Virus record (IMG/VR): IMGVR_UViG_2695420732_000030
Coordinates: 1-18,236 of that record
Origin: a virus
Taxonomy: Duplodnaviria; Heunggongvirae; Uroviricota; Caudoviricetes
Reading direction: 5' to 3' (one strand)
Length of the DNA: 18,236 bases
In this document: positions 16,410 through 17,330 of the stretch, piece by piece
Layout: each line of letters begins with the position of its first letter
Position numbering within the stretch: position 1 is the first letter of the stretch
The notes under the pieces: generated by a model
Told to the model about the DNA's origin: nothing
The model's input: only the letters and a program-made list of their open reading frames with translations
The model's database searches: none
Position numbers and translations under genes: made by a program

Positions 16410-16485
16410 CGTAAAAACTGCTTCAATTCCGGTAAGCTTCGCAAAGCTGTATCGCGAGGCGAACCAAACGCATGAACTTTACCAG

Positions 16486-16510
16486 AACCCGCCATTGAGC
16501 GGGTTTTTTA
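16486..16510 (+). terminator. Intrinsic terminator (AACCCGC-CATTGA-GCGGGTT then TTTTTT), tR'-like position downstream of Q
   Basis: Stem 16487-16492/16499-16504 and T-run read directly. Confidence 0.7.
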
Positions 16511-16548
16511 TTGCGGAATTAATTACGGACCGTTATTATTCTGCTCCC

Positions 16549-16624
16549 GGCCCTTTAGCTCAGTGGTGAGAGCGAGCGACTCATAATCGCCAGGTCGCTG
16601 GTTCAAATCCAGCAAGGGCCACCA
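16549..16624 (+). tRNA. ileZ: tRNA-Ile2 (anticodon CAU, lysidine type; could be annotated Met), ileZ-like
   Basis: Hand-folded cloverleaf: acceptor GGCCCTT/AAGGGCC, D-arm GCTC..GAGC, anticodon loop CTCATAA, T-arm GCTGG-TTCAAAT-CCAGC, encoded CCA; closely resembles E. coli ileX as recalled. Confidence 0.8.
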
Positions 16625-16633
16625 TATCACATA

Positions 16634-16710
16634 CCGCCATTAGCTCATCGGGACAGAGCGCCAGCCTTCGAAGCTGGCTGTGCGGGGTTCAAGTCCCCGA
16701 TGGCAGTCCA
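16634..16710 (+). tRNA. argN: tRNA-Arg (anticodon UCG as read), argN-like
   Basis: Anticodon stem CCAGC/GCTGG with loop CTTCGAA; T-arm CGGGG-TTCAAGT-CCCCG; encoded CCA; one C-A mismatch at acceptor pair 2-71. Confidence 0.7.
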
Positions 16711-16723
16711 TTATCAGCATCAT

Positions 16724-16800
16724 GCGTTGTTAGCTCAGCCGGACAGAGCAATTGCCTTCTAAGCAATCGGTCACTGGTTCGAATCCAGTACAACGCGCCA
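16724..16800 (+). tRNA. argO: tRNA-Arg (anticodon UCU, reads AGA), argO-like
   Basis: Acceptor GCGTTGT/ACAACGC, anticodon stem ATTGC/GCAAT with loop CTTCTAA, T-arm ACTGG-TTCGAAT-CCAGT, encoded CCA. Confidence 0.8.
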
Positions 16801-17077
16801 CACCACACTTATCTGCCCTGACTCTCTTTTGCGGGCTTTTTATTACAGGAAAGACACCGGACAGTGAAATGTTAAATGCCTCACAATTCAGGTAGTTGAC
16901 TGTTGCCTGACATGCTGAGCGTTTGTTAAAAAAATCCTGCATGATGAATCCCCCTGGGCGGCGGGGCATAATGACAGATGTTTGGTTGCGTATTGTATAG
17001 GCAAGTTGCGGATTCTGTCTGGTCATTGCAGAATTCACCGGGAGGCACCCGGCATCATGCTGTATACAGAGATTAGG

Positions 17078-17102
17078 CATATATCCAGGCTCCTCATCGC
17101 AG
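17078..17102 (+). terminator. Intrinsic terminator, plus strand (GGCTCCT-CATCGC-AGGAGCC then TTTTT)
   Basis: Perfect 7-bp stem and T-run read directly. Confidence 0.65.
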
Positions 17103-17107
17103 GAGCC

Positions 17108-17133
17108 TTTTTACATGCAAAAAAAGCCCGAGT
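17108..17133 (-). terminator. Intrinsic terminator, minus strand (GCCCGA-N6-TCGGGC preceded by A7 on plus)
   Basis: Convergent with the 17078-17102 terminator; no obvious minus-strand gene upstream of it within the window. Confidence 0.45.
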
Positions 17134-17203
17134 AGGTTCGGGCAACAGCATGAGATACTTGCATTGTCATTTTTATCGTGTGGATTTTAACCAGGGTTTA
17201 TAA

Positions 17204-17228
17204 GGCTGCGCAACTGCGCGGCCTTTTT
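17204..17228 (+). terminator. Intrinsic terminator, plus strand (GGCTGCGC-AACT-GCGCGGCC then TTTTT)
   Basis: 8-bp stem including one G-U pair, then T-run; ~100 nt upstream of the nanS-like start. Confidence 0.6.
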
Positions 17229-17330
17229 CGTATTGCGGGCTGTAGTCTTCCTTCTGTCATTGTCCTGTAACTTCCGGACTTCAGCCCGCCCCTTATCTGA
17301 CTCACAACATTATCCCGGCCGGGAGGATTC

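Follow-up and report, generated by a model that had tools for sequence, protein, structure and literature searches.

We analyzed an 18,236-nt stretch of DNA from an IMG/VR virus record (IMGVR_UViG_2695420732_000030, positions 1 to 18,236; hereafter, the window), and in particular the interval at 16410–17330 that separates a Q-like late antiterminator gene from a nanS-p-type sialate O-acetylesterase gene. The region is very probably the late-control region of a lambdoid prophage of the Rac site (ttcA), whose cargo site, downstream of the late promoter, holds a toxin-free allele. The state without toxin genes is most plausibly one of several alleles exchanged at this site through recombination in its conserved flanks, and not the scar of a deletion. 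The allele is known and widespread at the lambdoid ‘moron’ site that Tree et al. (2014; PMC4104026) described, and its elements are further copies of published ones. Observed directly are the identity and position of every element, a 39-bp spacer at the position of stx2AB, the commonness of the resulting junction, and alternative cargo at the same point in other loci. A preliminary description of this DNA had seen in it the late-control architecture of Shiga toxin (Stx)-converting phages with a vacant, non-coding stx slot of ~530 bp at 16801–17330. The order that it gave for the Q-like gene, a tR'-like terminator, three transfer RNA (tRNA) genes and the NanS-p-type gene is borne out, all of them lying at or near the positions it named; the extent and the content of the slot are not.

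The late region of the Stx2 phage 933W, like that of Sakai prophage Sp5, runs Q, pR', tR', ileZ-argN-argO, stx2AB, EcOnc27/AsxR, nanS-p, lysis genes. Base-level alignment of the window to 933W, whose features were taken from its GenBank annotation, gives two blocks. The first (16509–16841, 92% identity) extends from the tRNA promoter of 933W through its three tRNAs to the ‘terminator upstream of the stx genes’, and the second (16881–18236) runs from 46 nt past the stxB2 stop codon into nanS-p. Because the aligned blocks end at 16841 and restart at 16881, the 1341 bp that include stx2AB in 933W correspond to 39 bp here (16842–16880), an unoccupied cargo insertion point. The published observation that the small RNA (sRNA) STnc100 begins 75 nt past stx2B in Stx2 phages agrees with this alignment. 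Similarity to stxA or stxB across the whole window (tblastn and blastn, Stx2 and Stx1c) is at chance level, with a best E-value of 0.18, so the absence of stx genes noted earlier is upheld. The slot of ~530 bp, in contrast, had been overstated more than 10-fold, and about 300 bp of it are a pair of sRNA genes.

From the tRNA promoter onward the order of elements is that of 933W. Upstream of 16509, where the homology starts, the Q gene, leader and terminator are not of the 933W type and are unrelated to it in sequence; the late-control layout is shared with Stx phages. Within the homologous part, identity is mosaic and ranges by segment from 67% to 97.5%: it is 96% in the tRNAs, 73% in the post-tRNA terminator, 79% in the STnc100-type unit, 78% in the sRNA gene that converges on it, and 91% at 17179–17330. 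This mosaic identity, with flanks of the site at 73–79%, indicates that the window is not a recent deletion derivative of a 933W-like phage. The post-tRNA terminator (16815–16841, plus strand), a copy of the one that precedes stx in 933W, is degenerate here, with a 4-bp stem of −6.0 kcal/mol; among the loci fetched, those of other spacing classes have a stem of 7–8 bp and −12 to −16 kcal/mol, and the decayed form is common to all 41 with 39-bp spacing. Phage phi296 has the 39-bp spacer, yet the left arm of its terminator reads GGCTCGC, as in intact alleles.

The junction of the window is common. Its exact sequence (16790–16935) occurs in 485 of 5426 complete Escherichia coli genomes, with 772 copies in all and as many as four in one genome, and the 39-mer is present in the stx-free phages phi296, phi315, phi367, TL-2011a, PPwrbA_EH2201, PPwrbA_EC3734 and Lahn2. 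Phage vB_EcoP_phi296 (a Traversvirus), TL-2011a, PPwrbA_EH2201 and Lahn2 resemble the window in having the tRNAs, the 39-bp spacer (97% identical), the sRNA region and nanS-p without stx; they differ from it in backbone, in an intact post-tRNA terminator, and in an sRNA region only ~68–70% identical to that of the window. We also compared the distance from the post-tRNA terminator to the sRNA unit in 125 fetched loci, most of which were retrieved by scanning viral contigs with a pattern that excludes AsxR-type loci, and for which the numbers are counts, not frequencies. The spacing of 39 bp was found in at least 41 loci and that of 9–11 bp in at least 13, neither with any content. A spacing of ~700 bp (at least 22 loci) accommodates a gene for a 143-aa TerB-like protein (phrog_632, ‘tellurite resistance’), one of 1301 or 1359 bp (at least four loci) the TerB-like gene plus two small open reading frames (ORFs), one of 306 bp (at least one locus) a single 44-aa ORF, and one of 1341 bp (at least two loci) stx2AB. 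A single insertion point thus has several alternative states, being either empty or filled by stx2AB, a TerB-like gene or other small ORFs. Exchange between them by homologous recombination would leave no scar, whichever its direction. In the cargo-bearing alleles examined, 933W included, a shared TATCTGCG motif opens the cargo right after the terminator. The TerB-like protein occupies the insertion point of stx2AB in loci L022, L071 and L063 and in about 25 others among the viral-contig loci listed, in some of them with two ORFs of ~70 aa.

Downstream of the spacer lies a convergent sRNA pair. The plus-strand member is an STnc100-type unit (16881–17118) of the EcOnc27/EcOnc28 type, related to PasD, which according to published work sits directly upstream of an esterase gene. 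Its Rfam match (RF02076, 16910–17118) scores 175.6 bits, where the gathering score is 47, and spans model positions 1–206 of 206; it ends in its own terminator (17087–17113). The northern probe for EcOnc27, which is sRNA103 by another name, matches 31 of 35 positions at 17057–17091, counted by eye. The minus-strand member, an EcOnc03-type anti-sRNA of the AgvB/AsxR family (17119–17178; terminator 17143–17126), scores 56.2 bits against a threshold of 56 for AgvB (RF02702) and 44 against 63 for AsxR. Its sequence, CGAUAAAAAUGACAAUGCAAGUAUCUCAUGCUGUUGCCCGAACCUACUCGGGCUUUUUUU, has one loop-base mismatch to the published EcOnc03 (Tree et al., 2014, supplementary Fig. S4, PMC4104026), which begins 8 nt further in and ends inside the U-run. 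In Sakai, where prophage Sp9 encodes it, EcOnc03 was detected as an abundant, Hfq-bound RNA with lengths of 56, ~54 and 51 nt; it was among the three unannotated sRNAs recovered most by Hfq crosslinking, and was also shown by northern blot and 5' rapid amplification of cDNA ends (RACE) (PMC4104026).

The arrangement of the two genes is also a published one. Convergent sRNA pairs occupy the same position between stxB and nanS-p in Stx phages (PMC4104026; PMC7873438; PMC12370729), and such dyads follow the late promoter and precede the lysis genes (Sy and Tree, 2021, PMC7873438). Those described at the ‘moron’ site of enterohaemorrhagic E. coli are AgvB/EcOnc06, AsxR/EcOnc27 and EcOnc03/EcOnc28 (Tree et al., 2014, PMC4104026). 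The pair in the window lies at the same site, past the late promoter and before a conserved phage ORF, and is likewise convergent with abutting terminators; we find no substantive difference and regard it as a further copy of the EcOnc03/EcOnc28 type, at the Rac (ttcA) site. Like 933W, then, the window has an STnc100-type RNA and a convergent anti-sRNA before nanS-p, but the anti-sRNA has the 5' end of EcOnc03 and not that of AsxR.

Judged by its sequence, the minus-strand RNA is a member of the AgvB/AsxR family without the mimic of AgvB proper. It has the traits of the family, namely a length of ~51–60 nt, a conserved 3' part of ~42 nt with a terminator, a variable 5' end and a convergent partner, and it matches AgvB in this 3' part, in its length of ~60 nt and in genomic position. 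Its 5' end reads CGAUAAAAAUGACAAUGCA. The CACAACA motif with which AgvB mimics a GcvB target was not found in the 5' variable region, where AAAAAUGACAAUGCA stands in its place, and predicted pairing of this 5' end with GcvB (−11.5 kcal/mol) is no better than that of shuffled sequences, 48% of which do as well; the AgvB control gave −19.5 kcal/mol, reached by 2.4%. Pairing with FnrS was also no better than that of shuffles, in a comparison of low sensitivity in which the AsxR–FnrS positive control failed as well.

The sRNA pair accounts for most of what had been seen as terminators in an empty slot. The three hairpins of the preliminary description, two on the plus strand (17087–17108 and 17202–17225) and one convergent on the minus strand (17143–17126), are exactly where it placed them. 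Since 17087–17108 is the terminator of the STnc100-type unit and 17143–17126 that of the minus-strand RNA, two of the three are sRNA 3' ends. Three such hairpins in 16801–17330 is a chance-level number (3.1 expected from shuffles of 15500–18236), and the two on the plus strand fold far better than shuffles (z-scores of −4.8 for 17087 and −4.0 for 17202). The third belongs to a conserved terminator upstream of nanS-p (17202–17230, plus strand; 10-bp stem at 17202–17225, −18.3 kcal/mol), a feature shared with 933W and kept in more than 100 related loci with all three anti-sRNA types; by eye, it overlaps the probable −35 element of the anti-sRNA promoter. As for coding capacity, the two long ORFs of 16801–17330 (one of 116 aa, minus strand, and one of 73 aa, plus strand) have no Pfam match at E-values up to 1, so the slot is non-coding with respect to protein, but it holds two RNA genes above Rfam gathering scores. 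Leu_leader, Trp_leader, SorY and other weak Rfam matches were rejected, as each falls far short of its gathering score, and the plus-strand ones overlap terminator hairpins.

Ahead of the site lies the tRNA cluster. Its putative promoter, pT (16511–16539, plus strand), aligns to the ‘pT; putative tRNA promoter’ of 933W and reads by eye as TTGCGG, 17 nt, TATTAT. The tRNA identities that had been read from the sequence were confirmed by ARAGORN, which reports the anticodons CAT, TCG and TCT. The ileZ-type tRNA (16549–16624; Rfam tRNA score 72.5 bits), of the tRNA-Ile2 type, is 100% identical to 933W ileZ and matches K-12 ileX, a lysidine tRNA-Ile, at 68 of 76 positions; a near-identical copy in E. 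coli O55:H7 CB9615 is annotated as tRNA-Ile in RefSeq, and the tRNA is expected to read AUA after lysidine modification. The other two are tRNA-Arg genes that align to 933W argN (16634–16710; CGA/CGG; 52.2 bits) and argO (16724–16800; AGA/AGG; 70.1 bits) with 8 differences in 167 nt in all. Each of the three tRNAs scores above the Rfam gathering threshold. The argN-type tRNA has an acceptor-stem mismatch, C2:A71, where 933W has C2:G71, and its Rfam score is below those of its neighbours (52 versus 70–72); the argO-type tRNA has A37 where 933W has G37.

Codon use supports the usefulness of these tRNAs to the prophage even without stx. Per 1000 codons, with the prophage and three adjacent host genes taken from the CB9615 homologue, the early genes of the prophage use ATA 10.9, AGA 8.2 and AGG 3.7 times and its late genes 4.2, 4.9 and 6.5 times, against 2.7, 0.9 and 0 in the host genes. 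ATA and AGA are thus enriched about 2- to 9-fold, as the preliminary description had proposed to check, and the prophage contains 51 AGG codons where the host genes contain none. The corresponding values for stx2AB of 933W are 36.6, 14.6 and 4.9.

Upstream of the 933W-like part, the Q-like gene (15855–16409, plus strand; start as in the RefSeq homologue of CB9615) encodes a DUF1133 protein of 184 aa, a distant relative of phage 21 Q. It matches DUF1133 with 351 bits and Phage_antitermQ with 33.7 bits (cut-off 26) in Pfam, PHROG 753 (‘anti-termination protein Q-like’) at an E-value of 2.6e-80, and the solved Q21 structures 6P18 and 6JNX at 3.7e-4 over residues 13–181, nearly its whole length. 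This Q type was found in 40 phage records (Klebsiella, Salmonella and Escherichia among others, Rac-SA53 included), and no Stx-converting phage is named among the organisms tallied for them. The protein of Escherichia phage Rac-SA53 (KU052037) is 69% identical to that of the window. A late promoter and leader of the pR' type would be expected at 16410–16483, given the place of this interval after the Q stop codon and before the terminator; the promoter scan reported no consensus promoter in this interval, which has no homology to the annotated pR'/qut of 933W. The tR'-like intrinsic terminator that follows (16484–16515, plus strand) consists of a 9-bp stem (16484–16507) and a U-run, at −13.1 kcal/mol and a z-score of −3.3.

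Established lambdoid biology and experimental work on Sakai prophages suggest how these elements would act together. In the lysogen, transcription that starts at the late promoter would end at 16484–16515, and the three tRNAs would be made from their own promoter and supply decoding of AUA, CGA/CGG and AGA/AGG. The two convergent sRNAs, the STnc100/EcOnc27-type RNA on the plus strand and the EcOnc03-type RNA of ~51–60 nt on the minus strand, would be expressed and bound by Hfq, the latter possibly acting, as do AgvB and AsxR, as a sponge of a core-genome sRNA through its variable 5' end. The hairpin at 17202–17225 may be an extra barrier that, in the lysogen, keeps read-through out of nanS-p and the lysis genes. 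Upon induction, the Q-like protein would render RNA polymerase resistant to termination, so that it continues past every plus-strand terminator and transcribes nanS-p as well as the genes for lysis and structural proteins. With the post-tRNA terminator decayed in this haplotype, co-transcription of the tRNAs and the STnc100-type RNA is possible. A more specific version, in which the STnc100-type RNA is a 3' trailer of the tRNA operon freed by tRNA processing and the EcOnc03-type RNA sponges a core-genome sRNA that is neither GcvB nor FnrS, is doubtful, and we put it forward tentatively.

The preliminary description had offered loss of cargo as one source of the stx-free state. In such a case a local deletion would have removed stxAB from a position after the tRNAs and ahead of the sRNA pair, with the 39-bp spacer left over. 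Loss of stx from prophages is a recognized event, and the spacer has a weak co-linear resemblance to the ribosome-binding and start region of 933W stx2A (AAAG..ACACC..TGAA.TGT). The resemblance is not significant, however. Of 2000 shuffles, 6% reach the best-strand score against the whole 933W cassette (p ~0.06) and 11% that against its first 120 nt (p 0.11), and the last 60 nt give p 0.77; the alignment to 933W once proposed to find stx remnants or a deletion junction yields no significant remnant in the 39 bp. Moreover, among the toxin phages of the phage collection, spacer-related sequence is confined to the Stx1c phage phiSTEC1589, whose copy (77–83% identical; 83% over 41 nt) lies downstream of stx1cB and between two tandem STnc100-type units, and because of that position the spacer looks like the leader of an sRNA unit and not like toxin debris. 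The sequence beside the site is only 73–79% identical to 933W, no Stx phage in the collection exceeds ~83% identity across the sRNA region, and among the loci listed the 39-bp state is found in 37 of the 38 that have both anchors and an EcOnc03-type anti-sRNA. A deletion scar is therefore very unlikely. An AAGTGTA repeat that flanks stx2AB in 933W, noticed by eye, was considered as deletion microhomology and dropped, given the relation of the spacer to the leader of another STnc100-type unit. In phiSTEC1589-Stx1c (PQ600364, 3219–3620), the spacer-related sequence stands directly after the terminator of the first such unit.

Nor does the interval look like a truly empty, decaying spacer, in which the RNA-family matches would be functionless relics and the whole a terminator stack insulating the lysis genes. 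Insulation is plausible in itself, as read-through from the tRNA promoter into holin and lysozyme would be harmful, and both the 17202 hairpin, which has no assigned RNA, and the degenerate post-tRNA terminator fit such a view. It is hard to reconcile with a minus-strand gene almost identical to an sRNA demonstrated in Sakai by three methods, with an STnc100 match whose full structure is intact, or with a haplotype so conserved that 38 of the 41 39-bp spacers among the loci listed are identical, and we find it barely credible. That the tRNAs are leftovers, meaningful only beside stx and without a role in a toxin-free prophage, is unlikely for other reasons. The ATA and AGA content of stx2AB is far above that of the prophage genes, and the acceptor-stem mismatch of the argN copy could be taken as a sign of disuse; against this stand the enrichment of the same codons in the prophage itself and the presence of the cluster beside many cargo states other than stx. 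The conservation of the tRNA block (ileZ 100%, the block 96% identical to 933W) amid adjacent sequence at 73–85% points to purifying selection.

Several points weigh against the reading of the region as a late-control region with a toxin-free cargo allele. The antiterminator activity of the product of 15855–16409 is predicted from distant homology. Consensus promoters for the late operon and both sRNAs amount to weak matches (9/12) at chance level, and by-eye promoter readings for them are inconsistent across alleles. The minus-strand RNA barely reaches the AgvB threshold and lacks the CACAACA motif, and the production of both sRNAs in the carrier strain is a prediction from the Sakai work. 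Finally, the census of cargo-site alleles is a biased sample.

The practical lesson is mainly a correction for annotators: where such tRNAs are followed by ~500 bp of apparent ‘nothing’ before nanS-p, an Hfq-binding sRNA dyad is to be expected, not a vacant toxin slot. The cargo insertion point is narrowed to 39 bp that follow the post-tRNA terminator and precede the sRNA unit, a help in the typing of Stx and Stx-like prophages.

The NanS-p identity proposed for the downstream ORF is supported. The gene (17331–18236, plus strand) is present as its first 302 codons, cut by the end of the window, and belongs to PHROG 143. It encodes DUF1737 (residues 3–53) and SASA (residues 84–278) domains at positions that agree with those given for 933W NanS-p (PMC10462455), and over 302 residues the product shares 83% of its amino acids with 933W NanS-p (933Wp42). 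NanS-p proteins of full length have ~630–650 aa and a C-terminal domain; the CB9615 homologue is 1947 nt long and encodes 648 aa. A sharp recombination breakpoint lies inside the gene, with 67% identity to 933W at 17331–17680 and 97.5% in the body of the gene at 17681–18236, and the protein is near-identical to that of 933W from residue ~118 onward.

The closest complete genomes to the window are those of E. coli 2013C-4974, OkiPb01713 and O55:H7 CB9615, with 98–99% identity over 76–78% of its length. The homologous prophage of CB9615 adjoins ttcA, and at its locus, which is 99% identical, the genes downstream of nanS-p are those for holin, lysozyme, terminase, portal and tail; the lysis and morphogenesis genes themselves lie beyond the end of the window. 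Because coverage is at most 78% in every complete genome, the replication and nin region is a mosaic unrepresented in the genome collection. By homology to CB9615, the left arm (1–16400) is Rac-like, with intR, xisR, ralR, recT, recE, kil, racR, ydaS/ydaT and a DUF1367/YbcO-like nin region. It also contains two type I toxin–antitoxin RNAs that pass their Rfam thresholds, RalA at 1557–1735 (225 bits; the CB9615 homologue has an annotated ralR) and sok at 14191–14365 (108 bits; hokD is adjacent in the homologue).

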